Below, in pieces: positions 4,123 to 53,467 of a stretch of 64,000 nucleotides of DNA. The DNA is taken from positions 56,544,001 through 56,608,000 of the forward strand of contig NC_059427.1 in assembly GCF_021028975.2 (NCBI RefSeq). Direction: 5' to 3'. The stretch comes from Sphaerodactylus townsendi. Taxonomy: Eukaryota. How positions within the stretch are numbered: the first letter of the stretch is position 1; every line of letters begins with the position of its first letter. The notes beneath the pieces were generated by a model that saw only the letters and a list, made by a program, of their open reading frames with translations, was not told the DNA's origin and ran no database searches. The position numbers and the translations under genes are program-made.

Positions 4123-4536
4123 TTAAAAAAATACAAAGAAATTACAGATTATTTTGGTTATACATCTGGAGAAAGAATATGAATATTTATAAATATGGAA
4201 CAATGTAAATATGGGGGTGAAATCATGACCAATTTCACACTGTCCTTAATTAAGAAATGAAACCAGTGGTATATTCTATGGCAGCAGTCTTTATTAGAAG
4301 CAATTCTCTCCTCCAGAGAATTTCTGTATTATGCACATCAAAATCTTCTTTAAATATTATTTATGACATAGAAAACTAGAACTTTAAAATAACTGACAAG
4401 CATTTCATTGTGTGGTATGCCATATTTCACTGCAAACAATGTAACATCTTCCATAATGTGCTTAATTCATTACTGGTATTTAAAAGTGCTTATTGGGCTT
4501 GCAAATCCTGTGTATTACCAAGTTGACCAAAACATA

Positions 4537-5018
4537 GGCCATTTCCGCACGGCCATCGAGGCGCCTCCACGCCAGCAAGAATTCTGCCGGAGTGGAGGCA
4601 GAGGCCGTTCGCATGCAGGCATGCCGACGGCCTCTGGAGAGGCCGGCAGGCTGCTCCGCATGGAGCCGCCTCTTCCCCCCTTCCCTTTCCCATGTACCTC
4701 TCGTGTCGCCGTCCTGCGGGCCTCCTCAGCCCCGCCCACGCTGCCCTCCAACCTCCAGGGGTTGGAGGACAGCGAGGGAGGGACTTAGGAGGCCAGCAGG
4801 ACGGCGACACGAGAGGTACATGGGAAAGGGAAGGGGAAACAGCGTGTTCTCGGCGGTGCGGTTGTTGTTTAGGGCGGCCTAACGCCGCCCTGGGGGAGGG
4901 GGAGCGCAGTCAGGTCGGTGCTGCTGCATTGCAGCAGCGCCGCCTGTGCGAACGGCGGCCTGGGGGCGGCGTTTTTACTGCCCCCAGGCCGTCGTCTTTG
5001 GCCCGTGCGGAAAGGGCC
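4537..5018. mobile_element. GC-rich MITE, PIF/Harbinger-like, with a long internal hairpin
   Basis: TIRs GGCCATTTCCGCAC / GTGCGGAAAGGGCC; 3-bp TSD ATA; perfect 41-bp inverted arms at 4677-4717 and 4796-4836. Confidence 0.8.
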
Positions 5019-6279
5019 ATAGTATTTGCGGCTCGGGGAACTAGACCAAAGGAGACTTCAAGATGGCTCTTTTTGAACATGTTTGTTACGAACTTTGAAC
5101 TACTTAATCAGGAATTTATAAGAGTCTTACTGCAGTTTGCTTTTTCACTCATAGCTGATAGAAGTAATCACACCGCTTGTTATTAAAAATATTCATCAAT
5201 TCAAACATAAATATTTTGATAAGTCAATAGGTAGACATAATATTTAGCAGCATGTATGAGCTAAATTGTAGAATGTTAAATATTTTTGTAACGGACAATA
5301 TTATTCGTTTCATCCACTGCAAATCAGCTTTGCTTTCTCAGCACCTTTTCTCTCTCTGAATTTAGCTTCTTTCCTAGGGCTATTGCTTTTCCAAACCAGT
5401 CTCATTTAACCTTGGGCTTGGAAAGGCAGTCTACAAGAACCTTGTTCAGATCTAGCAAGACAGTTTTAAACTTCTTAATAACTTGCCATTTATACAGACT
5501 CCTAGCAGGTTTTTGAACATTCAAAAAAACCAAGAAGCTGTTCCAAAAATTACAGGAGTTATTGTTTCATGGAATGATGTCATGGCTGAAATGCATGCCT
5601 TACAACCTTCTACATCCTAATCAACAACCTGCAGCCTTCACTGAGAGTAAATATTAATGCAATAAAGTATGAGAGACCCTGTTCTTTCTCAAGGACTGAA
5701 AGTTCATAGGACCTTTCCACACATGAAGTTTCAAATGATTCATATTATTGATACCTTTTCCCTACTTTTCTCTTCTGCATAATCAGTGACCATAAGAGAA
5801 GCCAAAGAAATGATTTCAACGTCATAGATGAAAACTTTATGTTCCTACCAGTAAAGATGTGTAGAATTGAACTATAGTCACATTACTTAATTTTAATTCA
5901 GATAGTAACAAATTTTGTGCTGGCAAGTATGTTGGAAAGTTCAATGTAATGAACCTCACTCTGTTTGCACAAGTATCAATGAAATTAAATTACTTCCTCT
6001 ATAAAGCAGGGAAGGAAGAAATAGAACTCTCAGTTGCCTCTGAATTATCCTTAAATTCCTTTCACAAACCATTCACACCCATATATTGTTCTGAACCAAT
6101 GAGCCAAGAAAAGAACAGGAGATTTCTTGTAAGGGTCAGACAAAACATCGGAAAAGCTATGGTCATTATGTTAGAGAATCAAGCTGCTCAAAGTTAGAGA
6201 AACCATTAATCAGTAATGACACTATGAAGAAATACTAATACAATAAACAGAAAATATTTGGCAAGAAATCAAAGCCTAC

Positions 6280-9623: not shown

Positions 9624-12050
9624 TCTATATGTATAAAAAGCTAACAGTGACTTTGTTAGTCACACCCTAGCGTCGAAACGGCTGGACGGATCACCCCCAA
9701 ATTTTCACATGACGTTCCTCCCCGTTCTGGGCAGGTAATTGGACCTTCAAATCGCTGAAAGTCCATACCTGAGCCAGGTAAAATGTCTTTTTCCTGGTGC
9801 ACCAGGCCATGAAGCTGGCTGCGTTTAACTGTCACCCTTAGAATGTTCATGCAGCCTGTCTGTGGCCTGAGGGCTTGGTATGACGGCTTAGAATGTTCAC
9901 GCAGATGGGCAGAGATGAGCAGTGGAAACAGTAAATAGGTGACACTGTTAGGTAATATGAGTGGAAGTGAAACACATACACACTTTGCCGTGTGAGACGT
10001 CAGGTGGGGTTCCCCCCCCTCACACGCAGGTAACTTTCACTCTCTGTGCCTCACCCACTGCTACCACACAATACACATCCAGCCCATCCTCACACACCTC
10101 ACTCTGCCCTCCCTCACATCCAACCACCACTTACCCACTTCCTCACCCATATTCGCCACAGCTCTCTTTTACTAAAAGCAAGCTGGAGTTTGCCTTTTTC
10201 TTCTAAGAAAATCCACGGGATGGGGGCGAACCAACACTACTGGCTCCGCTTCTTTTGCACGTGGCCCTTTAAGAACCCAGGGAGCTGGCCTCGATCTGAG
10301 TGCATCACCACCCTGCCTCTGCCGCCTGACTGGGATAGCCTCCTTGCCCCAGTTCTGCCTTACCCAAGCCAGGACTGTGCGTGTCAACCAGCCTCATGGA
10401 CAGCAGGATTCGCACTCTGGACAGTTCTGTTGTGGAATGGAAAGGGTTACCTTATACCAGGGGTCGGGAACCCGCGGCTCGCGAGCCGCAAGCGGCTCAT
10501 CCGCCGCTGTTCTGCGGCTCCATGAGCCGAGCCGCCGGGCCCATCTTCACCCGCCCTGCAAACAGCAGGGCGGGCGCATCCTTCGCCCGCGGCCGGCCAG
10601 GCCGCGACGCGGGCCCAGCCTCCTGCCCGCCTCGCTGGTTGCGAGGCGGGCGCTTTCCCGGCAGCCGGCCAGGTCGAGCCACCGGACCCGTCTTCACCCG
10701 CCCTGCAAGAAGCAGGGCGGGCGCATCCCTCGCCCGCGGCCGGCCAGGCCGCGCCGCGGGCCCAGTCTCCTGCCCGCCTCGCTGGTTGCGAGGCGGGCAC
10801 TATCCCGGCGGCCTTCTCCTCTCTTCCTCTTGCCTTCTGTTTCCCCCTTATACCTTTCCTGCCTGTCAATCACCCACCAATCCCCAAGTGACCTCCTCTC
10901 CCTTTTTCTTGCCAGCCCTGCCCCCGGGACCGCTCCTCCAGGCTCCCCACCTCGTTGGCGTGGGCCGGTGTCGGGCCTTCTGCACGCTGTCTCCGCCCCT
11001 CTAGAGGGGCCGGAAGCCAGATCTGTCTCCCCTAGCCCCGGCTCCATTGTCCCCGGCATTGCCTCTCTTGGGGCCAGCGGTGCTTTCCCCCATGTCCCAG
11101 GGGAAAGGCGGAAGGTGCCTGCCTGCCTGGCCCCTTTCAGAGTGGCTGCAGCATTCCGCAACAACCGGCTCCCTCCCACCGCATTGGACGGCTATTCCCC
11201 CATCCACCTGGCTCTGTTCTCTCCTCTCCAGTGAGTTCGGTGGCTCTCGTCATGGCGGGGGGGCAACGCGGGCAAGTCCAGGGCTGAAGGCAAGGGTGGG
11301 TGCCCCAGACATTGTACTTCAAAATCAAATTCCAAAACATACCACAAAAGAAAAAAAGACATAAATTTACCAAATTATAAAGTACTTATAATATAAGCCG
11401 CCGGGCCCGTCTTCGCCCGCCCTGCAAGCAGCAGGGCGGGCGCATTCCTCGCCTGCGGCCGGCCAGGCCGCGCCACGGGCCCAGCCTCCTGCCCGCCTCG
11501 CTGTTTGCGAGGCGGGTGCTTTCCCGGCGGCCTGCCAAGCCGAGCCGCCGGACCTGTCTTCGCCCGCCCTGCAGGCAGCAGAGCGGGCGCATCCTTCGCC
11601 CGTGGCCGGCCAGGCCGCGCCGCAGGCTTTGCCTCCTGCCCGCCCCGCTGGTTGCGAGGTGGGCGGTCTTCCGGCAGCCAGCTAGGCCGAGCCGCCGGGC
11701 CCATCTTTGCCTGCCCTGCAGGCGCGGGGGGGGGGGTGAGCGGGCGGGGGGCGCGAGTGAGCAAGTGGGCAGGGGAGCGGAGGGGGGGGGCGTGCGAGTG
11801 GGGGGGGGTGAGCGGGGGAGGGTGAGCCAAATGGCTCTTTGAGGGGAAAAGGTTCCTGACCCCTGCCTTATACTAAAAAAACAAGACACCACCATGTAAC
11901 AATGTGAATTGAAAAGGGAAAGAGGGATTCCATTTGACCACCCCAAAAGACTATGCTGCGGATCATTGGACCTTCATGGACATCTGTGTGGGTTGCGGAC
12001 TGTGATGAGAAGGACAATTGGCACAGCAACGCATGGCCAGGTCCCGCTAG
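9624..12050 (+). mobile_element. Non-autonomous Helitron (interrupted by a nested hAT element)
   Basis: 5' end A|TCTATATGTATAAAA with a GAAACGGCTGGACGGATC...AAATTTTCAC motif; 3' end CACAGCAACGCATGGCCAGGTCCCGCTAG|T; inserted between A and T with no TSD. Confidence 0.78.
10458..11865. mobile_element. Young non-autonomous hAT (Charlie-like) element with internal 147-bp GC-rich repeats
   Basis: TIR CAGGGGTCGGGAACC / GGTTCCTGACCCCTG; perfect 8-bp TSD CCTTATAC (10450-10457, 11866-11873). Confidence 0.92.
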
Positions 12051-33000: not shown

Positions 33001-33407
33001 CTCTATTTTTCCCTTAGTCTTAGGCAAATAGCAAAAAAAGGATGTTTATTGAGCCATTAACAAGCTGCCATATATAGTTAGTTGGCTATATTTGATTTGG
33101 TGGGTCAAAAATTATGCAAGTCTGAACTAACAGGACATCTGTATGCGGTATCTGAATTTGCTTTAGACAGCTTTATAACAGGATGCTCATACTGGATTTA
33201 GACTGTTTTAGAGTCTGTGTTTCCAACACCAGACATTAAAATGTGGATGATACAATCACAACTTTAACACAAAATAAAACAATTTGTTTCTGAAAAAAAA
33301 AGGTGGACAGGGATTTATGATTCATTAATTCTATTCTACTCGTCTATTCTACTTTAGTGCTAGATGGCAGGGATTACTTTGTAGTGGGGTGAACAGAGGT
33401 TACTTAC

Positions 33408-33491
33408 ATTAACTTCAGTTATAGCAATATCAACGACGCTACCAACAACAATTAAGGCATCAAAAGTGTTCCATGCATCAGTGAAATAGTG
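33408..33491 (-). CDS. CACNA1D: CACNA1D exon 31 variant B (84 nt, mutually exclusive IVS3): [28 protein letters not shown]
   Basis: ctaacag|CAC ... GTT AAT|gtaagt. Confidence 0.96.
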
Positions 33492-33787
33492 CTGTTAGGA
33501 CAAGCATTCAGTAGCATGAGAAAACAGAAACAAAAAAGAAAGAGAAGAAAAGGGACAGTGTTATAACACAGAAACACATTCTAAGCACCTTTCCACCTCA
33601 AGTCTGAGAAAATGGAAAACGAAAAACAACCAGCTGTGTTCCCAAAGCAATGTAACCTCACTATGACTGGCCTGTACACACAGTTGAGAAACATATCACA
33701 TTCTGTGACTTGTCCAGATAACAGAAATAAGTAAAGAGACAGAGAAAGAGAAGTGGGACTATGGGAGTGTGGCAGGGGTATACTCAC

Positions 33788-33871
33788 ATCAGCTTCACTG
33801 AGAACGATGTCTACTATGCTGCCAAGAACGACGAGGGAGTCAAACGAGTTCCAGGCATCACTAAAATAGCC
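33788..33871 (-). CDS. CACNA1D: CACNA1D exon 31 variant A (84 nt, IVS3): [28 protein letters not shown]
   Basis: gttcag|GGC ... GCT GAT|gtgagt. Confidence 0.96.
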
Positions 33872-34313
33872 CTGAACAGAGCAGGCAGGGGTGCAAACGT
33901 TTGTGATTACACATGAAATGTCAAAGCAGTCGCATACTTCTGTTTAGTTCTTTCATAAACAGAAATTACTTCAAAACAAAAATTAGTGGTGTAATGAGAA
34001 GACACGGCAACCCAACAATATGGAAATACTGAAAGAAAGGCTCACGTGGGTTATGATTTTATTACCATGTGCCAGCAAGAACCTGAGAAGAGTAATGGCA
34101 ATGGCAGCCTGAGTAGATTCGGCTGGGAGAAGTCTACAATCTGAGACCCAGAGTAGTGTAGTAGTTAAAGTGTCAGACTAGGATCTGGGAGACCCAGTCA
34201 TACTCTGTTATCGTAACCTACCTCACCGGGTTGTTGTGAGGATAAAATGAAGGGGAGGAGAAAGCTATAAGCCATTTTGGCCCCCAAAGGAGAGAAAGGT
34301 GGGTATGAATAAG

Positions 34314-35742
34314 TGCTGGGAGACTTCAACATCCATGTTGATTCGACCTCTTCTGTGGCAGCCGCTGATGTAGTGTAATCCATGGTGATGCTAGGCCTCT
34401 CACTCATGAACAGCAGAAGCCCCACACACCAACAAGGCCACACTCTGGACCTGATCTTTGATGATACTGGAGTGCGAGGGTCAGCCTTAGATTGGCTGCC
34501 CTCCTTTCTCCGAGACCGGCAATTGCAGGTGGCATTGGGGGGGAAAGAATTCCAGGCATCATCCTATTGATTGTGGGGTGCTGCAGGGGGCGATTCTCTC
34601 CCCAATGCTTTTTAACATCTACATGCACCCCCTGGCAGGGTTGGTCCGGAGTTTTGAGCTGCGGTGTCACCAATATGCTGATGACACCCAGCTCGTGTTC
34701 ACGATGGAGGGCCACCTGTCTTTGGCCCCTGGTGCTCTCCAGCATTGTTTAGAGGCTGTTGCCGGTTAGTTGAGAGCAAGTTGGCTGAAGCTGAATCCAG
34801 CAGACAGAGGTCCTGTGGTTGGGCAAGGTAGAGAGGTTGGTGGACTTTTGCCTGCCTATGCTGGATGGCGAGGCCTTACATCTAGCCCCAACTGTCCATA
34901 GTTTGGGAGTGATTCTGGACCCGGTGTTATCACTGGAAGCCCAGGTCACCCAGTCAGCCTGAGTGGCTTTCTACCATGTGTGGCAGGCATGGCAACTGGC
35001 CCCATATCTCTCCCGTTCTGATCTAGCCACAGTGATCCATGCAACGGTCACCTCCAGGTTGGATTACTGTAACTTGCTGTACACTGGCCTACCCTGAGTG
35101 TGATCTGCAAGCTTAAACTCGTGCAGAACGCGGCAGCCAGGCTCCTTACTGGAGCATCCAGCTGGGACCGGATTACGCCAGTCCTGTACCATCTTCACTG
35201 GCTGCCTATTGAGTTCAAGATCATGTTCAAGGTTTTGGTCTTGATCTTTAAGACCATGAGCCATCTTGAACCTGCATGCCTGAGGGACTGTTTCTCCCCA
35301 TATTGCCCCTCCAGGGCCCTCCGCTCTTAGGAGGAGTACCTATTGGAGTTCCCCAGCCCCAGAAACATCCGGCTGGCCTCTATGAGGGGCAGGGCTTTTA
35401 CTGCCTTGGCCCCCATGGTGGAACAGGCTCTCTAGGGAGGTTAGGGCCCTGTGAGACCTGCAGGAATTTCGCAGGGCCTGTAAGACAACCATGTTCCATT
35501 AAGCATTTCCACCTGGCAAGCTGGGAAGATAAATAAGATCACCTCAGCTTTACTATGGGTACAGAGGGGAGGGGGTGGGTTCTGTTGCCATCTGCTTTAC
35601 TGATTGGAATGTTTTTACTGGTTTTATATGATTTTATGCTGTTTTAAAATGTTGTACGCTGCCCTGAGCCCTTCGGGGGAGGGCGGGTTATAAATTTAAA
35701 GAATGAATGAATGAATAAATAAATAAATGAGTGAAATAAATA
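34314..35742 (+). mobile_element. L2-clade LINE remnant (internally deleted, frameshifted)
   Basis: APE endonuclease motifs (LGDFNIH, PTHQQGHTLDLIF) joined to RT motifs (QGAILSP, QYADDTQL) and a C-terminal LVQNAAARLL..ITPVLYHLHWLP; (TGAA/TAAA)n tail. Confidence 0.9.
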
Positions 35743-36800
35743 AACAAGTGCTGTTTTAATGGGGAAGTTGTGAATCTACAAGTTAGAGTGGTTCTGATGA
35801 TGCCCAAAGCTATGAGAAAAGTAAGATAACCCTTGCCATTTTTAAGACAAGGGTCTAGGGAAGCCAGTTCGGTGGAGCAGTTGGAGTGTTAGACTAGGAT
35901 TGCAGAGTCTCAGGTTCAAACCCTACTCAGCTATTAAGCTTAAACAGTGACATTGAGCCTAACCTCACAAAGTTGTTGAGTAGGCTGTCATGAGCTCGGT
36001 AGAAGAAAGGTGGAACAAAAATCGAAGAGTAACACCTAAACGTATTTCTCTTTTTGTGAGATCTCAAATCCTCTTAAAATATAGACGTTTCAACATCTCA
36101 AAAGGACAGAGACCACTAGCTTTGCCAGATGTTTCCACAGTGAGGTTTTAAAAGTAAACATTATTTTTGAAAATCCACTCATTCATCAGAATTTCTGAAG
36201 GACAGAGGATCATATTGTTCTTTCCAAGAATAGTTTGTCCATGAAGAGAAGAGTCAGAAAAGCTCCTCTTCATTTTTACCCTCCCGTCCTTCATGAGTAC
36301 ATAAGAAGATCTTCTGCAGTACATAAATGTTTATATGTTTTAAAATGTATTACAAAATGGTGAACTAAATCCATATGAACTAGCTAGGAATAAGAAACAA
36401 ATACCCACGAAGAACTCCTGATGGATGCAACTCTCCTTTACCACAGTAAAGGCCACTGAACCAAACTGACACTGTGCTGAAATGGTATTCCTGTCTTTGG
36501 AAGTGGAAGTACTTCTAGAGAATATAGTCATATGGGATAATGACAGAGTGTAGAATCCTCAAAGGATGTCACATTATGAATCCTTACCGTAAGCCTTTTC
36601 TATCAGTATGTACAAATATTGTTCTCAGTAATGTGTAAAGCCAAAGCAAGCAAAAGTAAACAACAACACTAATTAAGAGGAAATAAATATAATTCTGGAA
36701 AAGGGAAAAAATGTAAAATATGGACAAGTCACAGCAAGTAAACTGCAGCGCACACTTCACAGCCTTCATCACTGCAACAACCCAAAAGCAATCAACTTAC

Positions 36801-36830
36801 TAGCATTCTTTTCTTTTTTGCCACACAAAT
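36801..36830 (-). CDS. CACNA1D: CACNA1D cassette microexon 30a (30 nt): ICVAKKKRML, IVS2-S3 loop insert
   Basis: tttgtgtcag|ATT TGT GTG GCA AAA AAG AAA AGA ATG CTA|gtaagt; phase 0-0, consensus splice sites; resembles the 10-aa insert recalled from chicken Cav1.3. Confidence 0.82.
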
Positions 36831-37917
36831 CTGACACAAAATGGCAAGGGAAATTAATTCTGTAGTTATTTTGATACAAGTCTATTTGATGCTTTAGGTG
36901 ACAGTAAAGTATGCTAAGCAGATGTTGGCACAGTTAACGCCTATATAAATAATGGCATGCACAGAACAAAAAATATTTGAGTTGGCTCCGACCAGCTTTT
37001 CTGCTTAACTTCACCTCATCCTTCCCCCCAACCCCAAAAGCTGCAGGTCCTGTTTTGGGCTGCTTTTGTCTACATGGGGTTTACAATCTTCTGCCATGTC
37101 ACGGAATGTGCACAACAGAAAGGCCCAAGAGGACATTTTTATAAAGGGATTAAAACCACAATATAATCGACAACTCAGCACACTACTTCTATATGAGACA
37201 GTCTTATAGCCTATTGTACTCTTTATTGTATATACCACCTCCCCTTATGGTATACAGTTTGTGTTGCCTTAAACAGATTTTGGTTTGCATTGTTTTCCAG
37301 TTCCTATGGCATTGTTTATGGGAAACCATTAATCTTAATGCAATCCTAAGAACATTTTCCTGGGAGTACGATCCACTGAAAAAATTTCAGCAGGATTCCA
37401 AGTAGACCTGTTTCAGATTGAATTGGAACCGCTTTCCATATTTTGTAATATGCCTTGAGTCTCAATGAGAAATAATAATAACCCTTGGCATAGGCCTTTT
37501 GTGAGTGTTCAAGGGTACCCACTTATCTCTTTTGCTAATAGAGAAGCTCGTAGGATCCAACACATTGTCTATAAACTATTGACCATAAACATTTATTCTG
37601 TGAAATGTTTATCTAAACCATTCGTTTTATAAATGTGCATGCAATTTTTAAAAGATGCACATAACTTTCAAATACTGTTTTCTTACTATGAAATTTCTCA
37701 ACACCCACTTAGAAATCTTATGTTCATGGCCATGATCTGCAAACTGAAGCCCTTTCTGGGGAAACACGGAATCAACTTGCTTGCGTGGTTCAGAGATTCA
37801 CACAGGCACTGTACAAACAACTATACCCCTTTTCAGGGAAAGATGAGAATGTGGTCATGCATGCTGCAGTGGAATTGCAGCAGAGCACAACCGCATTGAA
37901 AAATAGGGCGGATTATT

Positions 37918-38908
37918 TAAAGATTAAAGAAGCTTACTTACACATTGGCATCGCCAAAACTGTTATCCTTTGCAATGGTAAACATAGGCCATTTCCGCAC
38001 TGAGAAATTAAATCTAGATAAACCAGGTTTCAAAAGAATTGGCACCTTTTCATCGAGGTTTCACCCTGCCCACTGCAGCGTGTGTGTAATGAGGACGTCC
38101 ATGTCTTTCATGCTTTCAAATAGTGCAGCAATCCCCACAATCACATGATCGAATGTGCGATTTGCTCAGTGGCTCTTTCTTCCTTGTCCTGATTGGCTAT
38201 TACACTGTGTTGGGGTGGGAATTTTTTTAATAGACTTTTTTTTAGCGCAGCTACACATGCGTAGATAGGACGGTAGCTGTTTTTCATGCTAAGCTATGTT
38301 TATGTGCGGCTTCAGTATTCTTTACCCATGCAGCTGTGCTGGCACAAAAGTGTCATTTTAGTGAACGGTTGGCACAGAAATCACGTTCCATGCAGCCATG
38401 TTTCCACGTAGCCTCTGCTAGAGCGAAACAAAAAAAAGAGCTGCGCGAATCACACGCAGCCCATTGTGCTTTGATTGGCTAGAAGGCTCCGCATCACTGC
38501 CAACAGCGGGAAATTAAATCTAGATTCAAACCCTGATCCTCCCCACCAATCTGCGTGTTTTTTTCAAATGATGCGATCAGGCGTAGAGGGAGTGCCAGAA
38601 CCAGGATGAATTCGTGTTCGGCGATCAGGCAGTGGGGAGTTCTTGCTGAAACCTGGTTATTTTGCGAGAGTATCACACGATTAATTGACTGTGGGGAATT
38701 GACCATAGCAACACTTTCACTTTCTACAGTTGCACCTGCCATTTTGTTTTCCTGCTGCAGCCCACAAAATGGTGAGTGCAACTGTGGAAAGTGAAAGTTT
38801 TGCCATATTGCCATCCAGAGCACTCTTTTATCAAACCACTATGTTTACCATTGCAAAGGATAACAGTTTTGGCGATGCCAATGTGGAAGTAAGCTTCTTT
38901 AATCTTTA
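37918..38908. mobile_element. Foldback MITE with ~70-bp TIRs (TA-flanked), interrupted by a Harbinger-like element
   Basis: 37918-37987 is the reverse complement of 38839-38908 with about 1 mismatch; second internal hairpin at ~38708-38802. Confidence 0.8.
37987..38704. mobile_element. Harbinger-like non-autonomous element
   Basis: TIR GGCCATTTCCGCAC / GTGGGGAATTGACC; 3-bp TSD ATA (37984-37986, 38705-38707). Confidence 0.72.
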
Positions 38909-40020
38909 CAGAGAGTCTTGGTGCAGGGAGGAGAGGAAGATGTGGCAGTTTAGTCCACATCTCCTCTCCTCTTTCCCTGAGAAATGGTATAGACATTGCT
39001 CTTTTTTTCTTATCACCTTTTTTGGCACCAGCCTCTCACAGAACACCACTGCAGTCCTAAACAGAATGACACTCTTCTAAGCGTGTAGACTTCAATGGAC
39101 TTAGAAGGGAGTAACTATTTAGGATTGAACTATGTATCAGTGTGCCTTTGAACAAAGAGCAGAATGTCCTGCTACTAGAAGATTATTGCTGCTACTAGAG
39201 AATTACTGCTCTGAGTGGAAAGGGAGTTTAAACACATTTGGTTTCACAGGGCAGTAATGCTTCAAGGCCACACATATGAAAAAGGATCAAGTTAGATCAC
39301 ATACTGAAATGATACAATTCATTTTATATTCATGTTCGACATTTAATTTAAAACTGGGAATTTCGAAAAGCACCATCTCTGTTTCAGTATTCATAGACAT
39401 GTTCTTGATTGTTTATACCTGTCTGCTCTTTTAAAATTACAATTAATCTCATTGTGGGGAGGATGCAGTGCAGGAGGGGGAAGCCATTAAAGCAGCTGTC
39501 TGCCGACAGATGTCTTGCACCTACAGAAACACAGCCCAGGACCCAGTCATGCTATGAAACAATGGTACAGTGCCACAGGGTGTGATAGGCTGTCACAGCA
39601 GTTAGATGTTCTGTCTGATTCTTCTTTGCATTTATTTGCTGGGGAAACTAGGCTTTGATAATCTTTCATAAATTTCACAATGGATCTTTTAAGGAACAAT
39701 TTAGAACCGGTAGTCAAACACTGAAGAGCAAATGTTTCAACATCAGAGTCATTAGCAAAGGGATGGCTTTATGACCTTAATATATATTCCTGGCCTCTCT
39801 ACTACTCAGCAATAGTTTAAAAAGCATTTCTATATCTCATTTCCTGTAGATGCCTATATAGCATTATCAGATTAAACATTTCTGTCAAGATGTCATTGAT
39901 ACATTACCACGAAAAGCATGCAGACACTTATTTGACACTCACGTACCTCACTGAAAAGAGGTGTAATTTTTAAAGAACTGATCCAAAGGCTATTTAACCA
40001 CACAGTGGAGAAGCACTTAC

Positions 40021-40131
40021 CTTGGGTTTAAAAGCAATGAGCTTCAGAACCATTTCAATAGTAAACACTGCAGTAAAAACCATGTTGAGAACATCCATTG
40101 CATCATTAAAAATTCTGGACTGCCCATAGTG
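40021..40131 (-). CDS. CACNA1D: CACNA1D exon ~30 (111 nt): [37 protein letters not shown] (IVS2)
   Basis: ttgcag|CAC ... CCC AAG|gtaagt. Confidence 0.97.
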
Positions 40132-41188
40132 CTGCAAATGAAATACAAGAGAGGTATTTTAAGCATTTGTGAGGTGTCCAAAATGAGCAGCATAACATTA
40201 TTTTGAGTTATTCCTGGACTTTTGCACAGGGTCCCAGAATCACTAAGACGACCCCTGAGTTATCAGTAACAAGAGGCCTTGCTATGTTCTTGTTTGATTC
40301 AGCATACCTTAAACAAAACAAGCTAAACAAAAACCTGTAGACTTATGGGCAACATTACAGTAAACTATCACTTTAAATGACTAAGGACACTGTTTTGACC
40401 CTTAATCAAACATCCACATGTTTAGCTCCAATTTCAGTTAGCAGTGGTGCACAGTTCAGACTCTAAAGAGGGACTATCCTAATAATTTAACCATGGGTAA
40501 TAAAGGTATCATTCTTTTTGACTTTGTATTTTTGCTCTGGAATCCTCACATATAGACAAATAGCAAAATTTGAAAGTGGAGTGAGGGAGAGGAAAAGCAC
40601 TGCAAGACATTTTTGTGGGTTTTGTTCATCGGCTCCTCTTAAGCTAAGTCACTTTGAACAGTTTCACAGAAAACTTACGTTGAAAACCACAATCGCTAAA
40701 ACACTGAAAAGTGTTTCATAATTGCCTGCAATAAACATATCCCCTATAAAACTGCCAGATGAAAGGTCTGTCTTTCGTTGTATATACTTTATAATGTCTG
40801 TTCTTCACTTTCCTTAAGACTTCTTAAGAAACCTGAGTATTAAAAAAAACTTCTCAAAAATAAAGATGAGGAAGTGAGACAATGAAGGGGCTCACAAAAG
40901 TTTGTGTGTGTGTGTGTGTAAACTGCCTTGAAGTCACAACCAACTTATTGCAATTTTGTAAGGTTTTCAAGGCAAGGGGCAGTCAAAGGTGGTTTGCCAT
41001 TGCCTACCTCTGCATGTTCTGAGAGAACTGTGAATGGCCCAAGGTCACCCAGCAGGCCTCATGTGGAGAAGTAGGGAATTGAACCTGGTTCTCCAGATTA
41101 GAGTATACCACTCTTAACCACTACCCCACATTGGCTTATGGTGGAAATTGTTTTGTTAATTATGGAAGTGTCGCAGAACTTTTATTTA

Positions 41189-41581
<393 letters not shown>

Positions 41582-43659
41582 TCAACTACAACTATGACAG
41601 TGGCAATGTAGGTTGGGAAATGACTATGAAGTCAAAACAAGCTTTGCAGTTTAATAAATGAACACATGATGGCTCCAGTGTGGGCACAGCACCTCACATG
41701 GGTAAGGGCTTCCAGATTTCTTCTTCAGCAGCATGTTCAGAATGCAGTTTAAAAGATCTGTGAATCTGAATGTGCCCACTAACTTTCAGCCTCTTTAATA
41801 ACTCCATTTTCCCATTTGTGGTTCTTGATAATAGCCACAATCTCCAGTAAACCAAATATCAGAAAACCAGTTCTTGGTCGTTTACACAACATGTTCGTTA
41901 AAGTATTAAAATATTTATACCCAAGGTTGCTGGTGGCTCAAGGCAACCGTCAAATACCATGAAGAAACAAGATGCACTTTAAAATATAAGCAGGACTCAA
42001 CTGATTTAGTCCTATTTTTCCAACTAGAATAGGCAGGAGACAACTTTTTAGGCTCCTTTTTACAATCTGAATACACTGAGGTGCTTGTCCTAACAGGCAA
42101 GGAACAGCCTAGCAAGGCTGTTTTAGGTTGGGAAAATGGCACAGGAGGAAGACTTAATGAAGTCCCTTCCTACATACTACAGTCCTGACCCAAATTCAGG
42201 CCTCATGTGCCAACAATTTAAGGGGGTAGGGAACATTCATTCACAGAACTCCCATCGCCATATCTGATTAGGATCCCTTGGGTCTAATGATGTAAATCAT
42301 TGTTCTTTTGTCTCTTCTTGATGCTGTCAACCAGACATGTGATGGAAGTTCCATGCTCACTTTATGGCCCACCCACCCTAGCAGAGGGAGGGGAGGGAGG
42401 GGTGGCATGCAAGGGAGGGGAGGGAAGGGGACCTGGCATCTGGACCTGGCCCACCCACTCTTGCAGAGGGAGGGGGAGGGGAGGGAAGTACATATGTACT
42501 CATGGGATATCTAGAAATTTTCCCTGCAGGTCAAGTGGTTTCCTAGGGACATTTCATGTTAGATAAGCGAAGTGTGTATGGGGAGAGCAGGGCTGCTTAG
42601 GCCCTTTCTCTGAATTGGTTTCTCACACACCTGGGAATTTTGTATAAATAAGTAAATAAATCTACATATCAAGTCAAATCTTATTACAACCAGTGACAAT
42701 CAGGCTTCTGACATGGAATTTGTACTGGTGTAGCTGAGGTAATGTTGCCCAAAAGGACATTAGGCTGATGCCTAAGTGAGCTGCTGGATTCTTTAATGGG
42801 ATGTTAGCAAGCTGGAGAATAAAGGTCCAGCCTCATTAATAGAGGCTTAATGGGATGTTATTTACCAGATTATGCTATTTACCCATGATGCTATAAAAAT
42901 TTTTACCTGACCATGAAGCCTATTAAAGAAGCAAGAATTTTTTTCCTCCAGGTCTTTGGCAACCCTACTCTTTAACTGGGCCTTTCCAATTTCCAAATAC
43001 ACTGTATATCTATATGACTGAAATAGTAGGAACTGTTCTCACTGGGTTCTTGGGAGAATCAATAAGGGCTTACTCTTGCAGTTCCACTAGACACTTTGTT
43101 CCCTCCCCATTATTTCCTGTAAAACAAGGGATGTTCCATGAAGGCAATGCGGGAGTCTGCTACACACACAAAGCTAGAAAAATAAAAATATGTACAACAA
43201 CTGTACGCAGCATTATTATCATCACATAAATGATTTTAACTCTGAGTAATACTAGCCAAATGTAAAGAGGGTTAAAGATTTGCCATCAAGAATGTATACA
43301 GAGAGCTTGACTTTCTACTTCACAGACAGAAAAGGAGGCTAGAACCACATTCATTTGATATGAGAGAATTTCACCAGTGTGTTCTCTACAGAGAGATATA
43401 ACGAAACTGCCTTATACCAAATCAGACACCTGGTGCATCAACTCTGACTGATAAGGTAAACCAGGGTCTCAACTGGAGGTTTTCCTTCTAACCTCTGCTA
43501 CTTGGGGATCATTAAGCTGGAACCTGAAGCTTTAAATACAACACTTGCTCTCTGCCACAAGGTTGTAGCTTTTCCATGAGCGTGACTCTACTCAACAAAG
43601 TAAGCAAAGCAAGGGAACAGCACCCTCTTCTGAGACAAGAAAAAAGACACCCCCTTTCA

Positions 43660-43905
<246 letters not shown>

Positions 43906-44829
43906 TTAACAAAAAAGAAGTAAAGGTAATTTCTTTTAAGTTCAATTAATTACAAGTTCCATTTTGCAGTTCATACACAAGAACTGTAAAACAAGAGTAT
44001 GTATGTGACTCTTAATGGCAAAAGATTCACTTCAGACAGAACTCTTCATTTAAAGAAAACAATAAGGCTCCAAAAACAAATAAATATTGCTTAATCAATA
44101 CAGATTGGTCCATAGGAAGATTGGGAAATTTCACTGATCTTCCTAAGATAAAAACAAGGTAAAGTTATGAAAAGTGTACTTCTGGGCACAATCACTAAGG
44201 CATCCATCCTATGAACGCATTTGTGATTAAGCCCCACCAGATTTGTTTCTGCATTAAAAGCCCTAAGATCGTGCTGTAAATCACTAAGAGAGGAGTTTTA
44301 AGTTTTTAAATGCAGTATGCTTTATTTTTTTTTTCAGAGAAAAAAAGGAACCAACATAGGGTTGGATCCAATCTGTTTTTCCACTGGTGAAAAGAACAGA
44401 GGGGTCCACTATGACCACACAAAAGGCTATGCTGAGGATCATAGGACCTGCACTGGCAAAAACCACATGGGAGTTGAAAAGGGAATTAAATGCAACTGAG
44501 TGGGAAAGCAAATTGGATCCAATCCATGAAGTACATATTGAAATTTTAGAACATTCATAATACAACTGTGTACTAAATAATTAGATTCAAAATATAGAAA
44601 ATATAGATCTTGTGTGGAAACATCTGAAGTACTACAAGTGGAGCATAGTTCACAGAACTGGAACATGTCACCTTCTCCTTGAGCCCATTGCTTCCTCAAC
44701 TGCTGGGGTCGGTCAGAGGCCTTGCAGGGACATCACAGATATGAAGGGGGAAATCAGCAAATAAGAAAATTCATCTGCTTTGGAACCTTTTCAGATTTCA
44801 GGCTGGGCTATGGGAGGGAGAATACACTC

Positions 44830-45410
44830 ATCGACTTATAGATGATCTCTGTCTGAATGTGGACAAAAGCCATGCCGCTTCATCACTCGATTTATCTGCA
44901 GCCTTCCATACTATGAATCATGCCACCCTATTGAGATGTTTGGAGGCAGATCTTGGTATAATGGAAGTGCTTTGAACTGGCTTAAATCATTCCTTATAGA
45001 TCAGTCTCTAAGAGTTGCTATCAGAGGCCAGTTGTCATCAGTGTGGGACTTGGCCTGTGGGGTTCCACCTAGTGCATTCTTACTCCCTTAGTGTTCAACC
45101 CCTATATGAAGCCCTTGCATTCATAGTATAGGAATTGGTTATCATAAATACATTAATGGCATCCACTTTTATATCTTGTTATGCAAATCTTCTGGTGGTG
45201 CAGTAGCGATCTTGAACAATGGCCAAACAGATGTGGTTAAATGGCTAACGGGGTGGGGTGGGGAAACGTAACTGAATCCTTATAAAATGTAAGAAATGTT
45301 AACTAGGAAGGATGAAGCTTTGAAGGACATCATACTTTTCAATTTTGATGGAGTTCAGCTGACCCTTGCTGACTTCGCTAGAAGTCTACAGGTTTTACTG
45401 AACCCAATAT
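44830..45410 (+). mobile_element. Old L2-like LINE RT fragment
   Basis: Degenerate LDLSAAF.T.NH and CGVP.(G/S).L motifs; boundaries approximate. Confidence 0.6.
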
Positions 45411-51040: not shown

Positions 51041-53467
51041 CTAAAAGTAGAACAGTCATATTTTACTCTTTGATCCTGCTTAGCTCAATTATATACATAG
51101 GCTGTTTACAAGATGCTCGCATTGAATGATAAACAAAGTATTGCTTATTAGGTTAGTCAAAATACAAAATTATAAACCCAATGTTAAAATTGATCAATTT
51201 GACTGATGCCCATTAATGCCATTAGATATCGAAAACTTTTGGGAGGCGTGGGGGGGGGGGGGGAGAGAAATGAATGTTCCTGTACTCATATATGAGGTTG
51301 CAACAATTTCCTCCAATTCCACCCTCAGGAACAAGATTTGGGGGGCTCATAGGCTGCATCAATGGGGGTGGGGCAATGTTCCCTGTAAGTTGTGTGGTCG
51401 GACAGACACCTTATCAGTACCATACAGATCGGGCAGCCAGCAGCAGGCGGAGCTCTCGTGGGCAGCTCTGTGCTGCTCAGTGGTAGGTAACATCCATGCA
51501 GTTCCCTACCACAGTTAGAGGGATTATTGGGGTGTCATTGCTACCCCTCTTAAAATATATATATTTAAATTTTCTTAATGATACAGTCAGATATAGGCCA
51601 TTATCTTGTAATCCTTACAACAACTTTGTAAAGTGGTTGGGTATTGTTATCTCCGGGATGTAAACAGTGGTTTGGGACTGATAAGCTACGGCAAGCCTAA
51701 GGCTACCTGTGAATTCAAAGCAAGGGTGAAAGTGGATCTGGGGCTCTCTTTCTCTGGCTGAGTGGGGCAGATTGGTGTAGCAGAATCACTACTCAAGAGA
51801 GTCCCTCAAAAGATGCCAGGATTCAGTACCAGTAAGTACCATCACAAAAAACCCTAATTAGAAATAATATATTAATAATAATAAAACAAAAGTTGTTTTA
51901 TTTTTAAAAAATCCTGCCAACCCACACTCACATTTTTTTTCTGCTTACATAATACTAAATGTCAGATTCAGCCTCTTGCCACTCAAGGTTATGGCATAAT
52001 TCAATTGGGCTGGAGGCTGAGCAATGTAACATCCACTGAAATAAGGATAAACTGAGCTTCCCGAGATATTCTTCTTTGCTCACTGTTCCTCTTTATTTCA
52101 ATACCTTATCATGTTAAATAGCTGCTCATTTGCCCAGGGAAATATGTCAGCAGAAGGATAAAGAAATATGACCTTTCTCATAATAAGCATGTTCCAAACC
52201 TCCATATTGCCATAAATTAAAATGGAATATATTTCAAAGAACTGCGGACAGGATCCTGACTGACAGGACAGTGGCACAGCTTATTGTGCTACATATTGTG
52301 TTTTCACAGAGGTAGGGAAAGTGCCACTGCCAGATTGATGGGTGCAATGCAACAAGCCTGTTAGGAGACAGTCCAGCTGCGCCATGGCTGTGCCTTTCCT
52401 GGTCACAGCACCGCTACCTCCTCTGGATTGCATTGCCAGTCGGTTTTGTATTTTTCTTTATTAATCTAAATCTAGCTTTCACAGTCACATAGCTCAGTTA
52501 CTGGGAAAACCCCAGCTAGCTTCCAGTGAATATTTAAAACTAAAAAAACCACAGCATATCTTGTAAACAGCCAAAATTACAATTATCAATTAAAAATACT
52601 GTAAAAAGGACACACAGTAATGTGAATAAAGTTGGAAATAGATTTGTTGTTACATTCAATTCTCAACTGTAAATGCAAAGTTTATGTACTGATTCTTATA
52701 ATACCAGGAGGTCTACAGTTACATGTCTGGGCTACTCAAGGGTTTGAAATCAGATTTTCCCAGTCTCAAAGGTTGTAAAATGTGTGTGCACATGTTTTAT
52801 ATATTCTTGTTTATTTCCCCAGCACCAATTTGCCTCAAGAGCATTTACACAATCAGTATGCCAAGCTAATTAATATGTCAGAATGCTAAGTGCCCCAGAG
52901 AATGTTCTTTGTAATCAGTACACAAGCCATACATCAAAATACCAGTTCTGAACTCATGCATGGGCAATACATTTAAGCAAACATGTTTATGCCTCTCTGT
53001 CTATTTAAATGTACACCCGATATAAAGCATCTTAGTATATTAAGGGCAGAGTATCTTGCAAGTCCCTTTGCAAGAAAACAATGACCTACCATTACAGTTC
53101 TATGTTCAGAAAGAGAAATGAGAAACTACATGCTCCCCTTTTAAAAGATTTAGGATCTTTCTTTTCAAAATGCCAGAAAAGGGAGGAAGAAAACTCATGC
53201 GCTGTGAAACATTGCCCCCCTCTTCTGACAAACTGTAAGCAGAAAATAGGGTCAAATGAAATGTCAGATTGATGTGATGACAAAAATGTAGCTTCTACAT
53301 GCATCCAAAATTCAAAAATCATGAATAAAAATCATGAAAAAAATCTCTTTTTTTAACAATTTAAATTTGCTTGTTGAGTGAAAAGGTGGAGAACACTTCA
53401 AGTGCCTTTTCTTGCAGGAGACACACAGACAAAAATCCTTAAGCAAACTTCTTTATAAACCTGTTAC

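Follow-up and report, generated by a model that had tools for sequence, protein, structure and literature searches.

A 30-nt microexon of CACNA1D in Sphaerodactylus townsendi, orthologous to the optional IVS2-S3 insert of vertebrate Cav1.3 channels

RESULTS

The CACNA1D locus and the position of the microexon

The window, i.e. the whole stretch of 64,000 nucleotides of S. townsendi DNA analysed here, was searched by tblastn with a chicken alpha-1D protein as query, and about 25 exons of CACNA1D could be placed on its minus strand. All features of this gene are therefore given below in minus-strand orientation. Over eight of the exons (254 residues), 228-232 residues are identical to those of five squamate proteins as compared to 217 for chicken and 216 for a turtle. 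An earlier note on this DNA had described the microexon reported here as a likely squamate counterpart of an exon known from birds, and a squamate host is consistent with these counts.

The exon at positions 40131-40021 encodes the end of transmembrane segment IVS2, and its top match in the PDB is human Cav1.3 (7uhf_A 1226-1262). An intron of 6149 nt separates it from the IVS3 exon at 33871-33788, which is the first of a tandem pair of 84-nt IVS3 exons; the second one is found at 33491-33408, and the two are likely mutually exclusive. Within this intron, at a distance of about 3.19 kb to the donor and 2.93 kb to the acceptor, a stretch of 30 nt at positions 36830-36801 is preceded by gtgtcag and followed by gtaagt and reads ICVAKKKRML without a stop codon. 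As the exon at 40131-40021 ends on a whole codon and the exon at 33871-33788 begins on one, the microexon can be inserted in phase 0-0, where it would act as a cassette exon of the cytoplasmic IVS2-S3 loop. Length, frame, flanking splice signals and location in a 6-kb intron thus agree in every detail with what the earlier note had read from the letters.

The RNA around the microexon showed no unusual structure (z -0.12). In an AlphaFold model of the domain IV segment of Anolis, calculated with 25 sequences, the insert forms a coil between the S2 and S3 helices; with a mean pLDDT of 51, and values below 50 for the insert, this model is too weak to be used.

Homology of the microexon as compared to chance

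When splice signals alone are considered, the microexon takes only the 15th place among the open in-frame AG..GT candidates of the host intron, of which there are 266 with a length of 9-60 nt. Its homology to known inserts, however, sets it apart. Compared with the chicken insert at the same junction, IFVRKKERWL, it obtained a BLOSUM62 score of 24, the highest of all 6119 ten-codon windows of the intron, with the runner-up (23) being devoid of splice sites. Among the 28 candidates of the form AG, 30 nt, GT in the intron it was again at the top, with 24 versus 5.

Furthermore, a profile was built from 13 distinct non-squamate inserts, from which the squamate copies were kept out. Against this profile the microexon scored 33.3 as compared to 18.0 elsewhere in the intron (z 7.2), and when both strands of the window were taken together, it ranked first among 127,936 ten-codon windows, the runner-up reaching 24.6. 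Left out of the profile were three 11-residue junction inserts (P0179, P0180 and P0304 of our protein set) and two long ones (P0182 and P0205); these five odd inserts were set aside as unrelated gene-model artefacts or paralogues. A similar 10-mer at 53428 was dismissed for lack of splice sites. Since the best homology score among the 6119 windows of the intron, and likewise among the 127,936 of both strands, falls exactly on AG and GT, the microexon is not a product of chance, and we count it with high confidence as a live exon.

Orthologous inserts in other vertebrates

In a first search covering 120 proteins, the IVS2-IVS3 junction was readable in 74, six of which carry IFVRKKERWL, including the chicken isoforms 5, 6 and 7 of UniProt. 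The chicken sequence that the earlier note had given is therefore correct. An enlarged set of 304 proteins had a readable junction in 256 cases and a 10-residue insert in 56, with 14 distinct sequences; the value of 56 out of 256 is not a prevalence, as the enlarged search was designed to put insert carriers first. The exact 10-mer ICVAKKKRML was not present in any of the 304 proteins. In 55 of the 56 carriers the insert runs on into the first IVS3 exon, which may reflect a coupling of splicing but is biased by the query and can serve as a lead only.

At this junction, skate proteins contain VCVKKKERWL (P0151 and P0301), while VCVEKKERWL was found in one shark and one electric ray. Inserts of teleosts are e.g. 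LCVEKKDRML and LFVPKKERTL. The same 10-residue exon is shared by the teleost cacna1d models P0155 and P0158-P0178, the salmonid versions of which end in DP. The tuatara insert is ICVSKKERTL, turtles have ICVRKKERWL and IFVRKKERWL, and birds have inserts such as the IFVRKKERWL of chicken. Many of the bird and turtle models may have been projected from the chicken protein, and such models show the exon in the genome rather than its splicing. The motif KKKER of the skate channel was equated with the IVS2-S3 junction by the alignment made here together with reviews. As it aligns into the same exon, the lizard microexon is its orthologue.

Among squamates, ICVPKKKRYL occurs in Anolis carolinensis, Crotalus tigris and Pantherophis guttatus, in 4 of the 17 squamate proteins. 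These are the RefSeq models XP_062825988 and XP_062825982 (Anolis), XP_039216835 (Crotalus) and XP_034292970 (Pantherophis), and each of the three species also has isoform models without the insert. The exon is thus not hidden, as had been supposed, but already part of the RefSeq models of these squamates. Shorter proteins were also searched for transcript-derived fragments carrying a squamate insert; 4 matches were obtained from 27 candidates, and none of those examined was a new carrier. When sequencing runs were searched with positions 33350-43300, four runs from a single study contained the DNA, and no RNA run was among those listed. On the level of protein models, as opposed to genomes, the insert was found in none of the 42 mammalian alpha-1D proteins with a readable junction (43 listed) and in none of the 31 proteins of frogs with a readable junction (33 listed).

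By its distribution over skates, sharks and rays, teleosts, tuatara, turtles, birds and squamates, the exon is ancient. The earlier note had expected the 30-nt frame to be conserved in sauropsids, and 10-residue inserts are present in tuatara, turtles, birds and the three squamates. Its term 'sauropsid-conserved' nevertheless turned out to be too narrow, since cartilaginous and bony fish share the exon, and the link to the KKKER motif of skates, for which a mechanism has been published, had been missed.

Conserved residues and charge of the insert

V3, K5, K6 and R8 occur in all 14 distinct inserts without exception, and L10 is present in 13 of them. All five residues are kept in ICVAKKKRML, and each of its residues is used elsewhere at the same position. 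Positions 1-3 are hydrophobic throughout. At position 2, Cys is found in 11 and Phe in 3 of the 14 distinct inserts, with Phe present in all bird copies seen, in two turtles and in two teleost lineages. This exchange across species argues that a hydrophobic residue matters at position 2 and that a lipidated Cys is not required. The suggestion of the earlier note that the Cys of the insert is a possible palmitoylation site is therefore weakly supported.

Position 7 is occupied by Glu or Asp in 13 of the 14 distinct inserts. Lys at this position was seen in squamates only, a pattern that rests on four species, namely the three mentioned above and S. townsendi. Without an acidic residue at position 7, ICVAKKKRML lies outside the KKER/KKKER class of skates, birds and turtles when this is taken literally. 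Squamate inserts carry a net charge of +4, the highest among the copies seen, as compared to +3 for those of skates, birds and turtles, +2 for tuatara, +1 for the inserts of the shark and the ray, and 0 to +2 for teleosts. In the literature, which was searched without reptile terms and with key primary papers and supplements outside its range, we met no report of the squamate change from Glu to Lys.

The three squamate RefSeq copies are identical to one another and share 8 of 10 residues with ICVAKKKRML, including the Lys at position 7; the two differences are Ala for Pro at position 4 and Met for Tyr at position 9. The chicken insert, which belongs to the same gene and junction and has the same length and phase, shares 6 of 10 residues. 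Here, Cys replaces Phe at position 2, Ala replaces Arg at 4, Lys replaces Glu at 7 and Met replaces Trp at 9, with charges of +4 versus +3. The proposal that the microexon is the counterpart of the bird hair-cell insert is borne out by these features together with the top homology rank. We take the IVS2-S3 insert of chicken hair-cell alpha-1D to be the one of Kollmar 1997, labelled 'exon 30a'; our literature search returned no paper for this label, nor for IVS2 in combination with chicken hair cells. The skate insert VCVKKKERWL at the same junction is likewise identical in 6 of 10 residues, and both inserts contain four basic residues. In ICVAKKKRML, the basic run lies one position later than in the skate insert and includes no acidic residue (AKKKR versus KKKER).

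Splice sites and putative regulatory motifs

To judge the strength of the splice sites, matrices were built on 22 acceptors and 20 donors of CACNA1D from the window, with one acceptor and three donors omitted. The 3' splice site of the microexon (36850-36831) is weak and has a short and interrupted pyrimidine tract. Its score of 1.9 is below those of all 22 real CACNA1D acceptors (4.6-16.7, in-sample) and ranks 63rd among 400 intronic AGs. The 5' splice site gtaagt (36800-36795) scored 4.9, in the low range of the 20 real donors (4.1-12.7), and ranks 16th among 331 intronic GTs. A weak acceptor fits a regulated exon, but it would also fit a decaying one.

The earlier note had pointed to two motifs upstream of the microexon, and both were found at the positions it gave. 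A UGC at 36846-36844, corresponding to positions -16 to -14 of the acceptor, might act as an SRRM3/4 enhancer. A TGC between -20 and -4 also precedes 90 of the 400 intronic AGs and 2 of the 22 real CACNA1D acceptors, and the motif is therefore not above background. A possible RBFOX site, UGCAUG, is located at 36961-36956, 126 nt before the microexon. It is one of eight TGCATG sequences in the host intron, and at the rate of the window the chance of such a site within 150 nt upstream is about 9%. Of the suggested control by SRRM4 and RBFOX proteins, the motifs as such thus remain, but near background they say little about regulation. By the strict definition, neural microexons comprise 3-27 nt. 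With its 30 nt the exon exceeds this range and is a microexon by wider definitions only.

DISCUSSION

A possible role in low-threshold gating

The results presented here make it likely that the microexon is an ancient optional exon of the Cav1.3 IVS2-S3 loop which is spliced in by hair cells and similar sensory cells, is skipped elsewhere and lowers the opening voltage of the channel via its four positive charges. Its weak acceptor would make skipping the default, and some tissue factor would bring about inclusion in hair cells and perhaps in related cells; for S. townsendi, this splicing pattern is a prediction. The insert would then place four positive charges beside the voltage sensor of domain IV, by which the channel should open at a lower voltage. 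We infer this gating shift from work on the skate channel. In the study of Bellono from 2017, the charges of the insert reportedly push the S4 helix of domain IV toward the activated state.

For the channel of electroreception, a review describes the insertion of four positive residues, KKKER (PMC5993716, accessible part). The Cav1.3 of skates is reported to activate at a lower threshold and more steeply and to inactivate more slowly (PMC10064067, in the text available to us). Another review states in its available text that the Cav1.3 splice isoform of sharks and skates activates at a decreased threshold and that the auditory and vestibular organs of the pigeon express it; the low threshold could just serve to tune hair cells (PMC9167971). 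Zebrafish is described as being without the crucial motif in the accessible portion of PMC11903689. Together with the charge of 0 to +2 in teleost inserts, this means that the presence of the exon alone does not imply a low threshold.

The exon as such is already known, since it has been described in the literature from chicken, skate and pigeon, and its orthologues are found in squamate RefSeq models. It is the proposed source of the low threshold of Cav1.3 in skate electroreceptors and a mainstay of the idea of magnetic induction in the inner ear of the pigeon. The long Cav1.3 isoform of this organ was reportedly proposed for magnetic induction by Nimpf et al. in 2019. Squamates have no ampullary organs. 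The presence of the exon in squamates weakens readings in which it is specific to electric or magnetic sensing. For the long isoform of the pigeon (PMC9167971; bioRxiv 10.64898/2026.10.07.757263), the available text of the latter reports the induction model together with a physical challenge to it, so that this model is contested.

The intact and more highly charged squamate exon completes a natural series from 0 to +4 within one 10-residue scaffold. With this series, it can be tested directly whether the electrostatic gating model holds, and likewise whether the exon is a marker of electric or magnetic sensing or serves the plain tuning of hair cells. One may go further and regard the exon as a natural charge dial that was retained across the jawed vertebrates, with losses in mammals and frogs. 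Provided that the shift is set by charge, Cav1.3 of squamate sensory cells would open at an even lower voltage than that of the skate electroreceptor. This extension is speculative, and we put it forward with considerable reserve. Should it be true, the presence of the exon in the pigeon ear would be a general feature of hair cells and would not point to a magnetic sense.

Alternative explanations

Inclusion of the exon might instead be broadly neural or neuroendocrine under the control of SRRM3/4 and not specific to hair cells, a possibility that deserves serious attention even if we do not expect it to hold. The UGC in front of a weak acceptor is what such control would require, and only two of the real CACNA1D acceptors have one, but the same motif precedes 90 of 400 intronic AGs. 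The isoform appears in the genome annotations of snakes and of the anole, and a cacna1da microexon, which is not named in the text accessible to us, is mis-spliced in zebrafish srrm3 mutants (PMC13281805). Mammalian CACNA1D contains an SRRM3-regulated microexon as well; this target, however, is a different, 9-residue C-terminal exon, as stated in the available part of bioRxiv 10.1101/2024.06.13.598849. In addition, a mouse hair-cell study places, in its accessible text, the exons of Kollmar 1997 with those that were not identified as targets of SRRM3/4 (PMC7652395), which also speaks against the SRRM4 control suggested earlier. This is a weak negative for the microexon, because the work was done in mouse and mammals seem to lack it.

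It is unlikely, although conceivable, that the exon mainly serves membrane anchoring or the binding of a partner, with a hydrophobic start and a basic patch, possibly aided by palmitoylation of the Cys or by binding of acidic lipids, and exerts no direct push on the voltage sensor. The hydrophobic positions 1-3, the Cys in most distinct inserts and the invariance of K5, K6 and R8 even at a net charge of 0 to +1 would be in line with such a role. Evidence against it comes from the Phe that birds, two turtles and two teleost lineages have in place of Cys, and from the reviews, which in their available parts attribute the low threshold to the positive charges (PMC5993716, PMC9167971, PMC11903689). 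We consider it improbable that the microexon is a decaying relic, i.e. a recognisable orthologue the splicing of which was lost in this lineage. Such a fate would account for the weak acceptor and for the two differences from the other squamates, and the insert was not seen in the proteins of mammals or frogs, so that loss may happen. Nevertheless, the frame, both splice dinucleotides, the gtaagt that matches the consensus and every invariant residue are intact, and the two differing residues, A4 and M9, are both used by other species at those positions. A mere chance AG..GT stretch, for which the large number of open candidates in the intron and the 15th rank on splice signals could be held up, is refuted for practical purposes by the first rank on an independent profile and by the right length, intron and phase.

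Further features of the window

A 39-nt exon at 18608-18570 encodes the IVS3-S4 linker, matches chicken in 12 of 13 residues and is optional among the isoforms of relatives. A UGC and an AT-rich tract are located upstream of it. The linker has a length of 13 residues in sauropsids as compared to 15 in mammals and 11 in several teleosts, and frogs and a catfish have a second small exon at this site; a scan of positions 33390 to 18168 found no extra small IVS3-S4 exons of this kind. Two tandem 60-nt IIIS2 exons with AG and GT ends at 53664-53605 and 53527-53468 probably form another pair of mutually exclusive CACNA1D exons.

The intron of the microexon also contains, on the plus strand at about 34200-35500 and thus antisense to CACNA1D, a broken remnant of a LINE-type reverse transcriptase, which matches Pfam RVT_1 at 34491-34766 (E 1e-11). 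No Pfam match was obtained for a remnant of similar appearance near 44700-45300. GC-rich 147-nt tandem units at 10528-10813 and 11396-11723, apparently forming blocks in opposite orientation, possibly represent a non-autonomous transposon, and another GC-rich repeat is located near 4400-5050.
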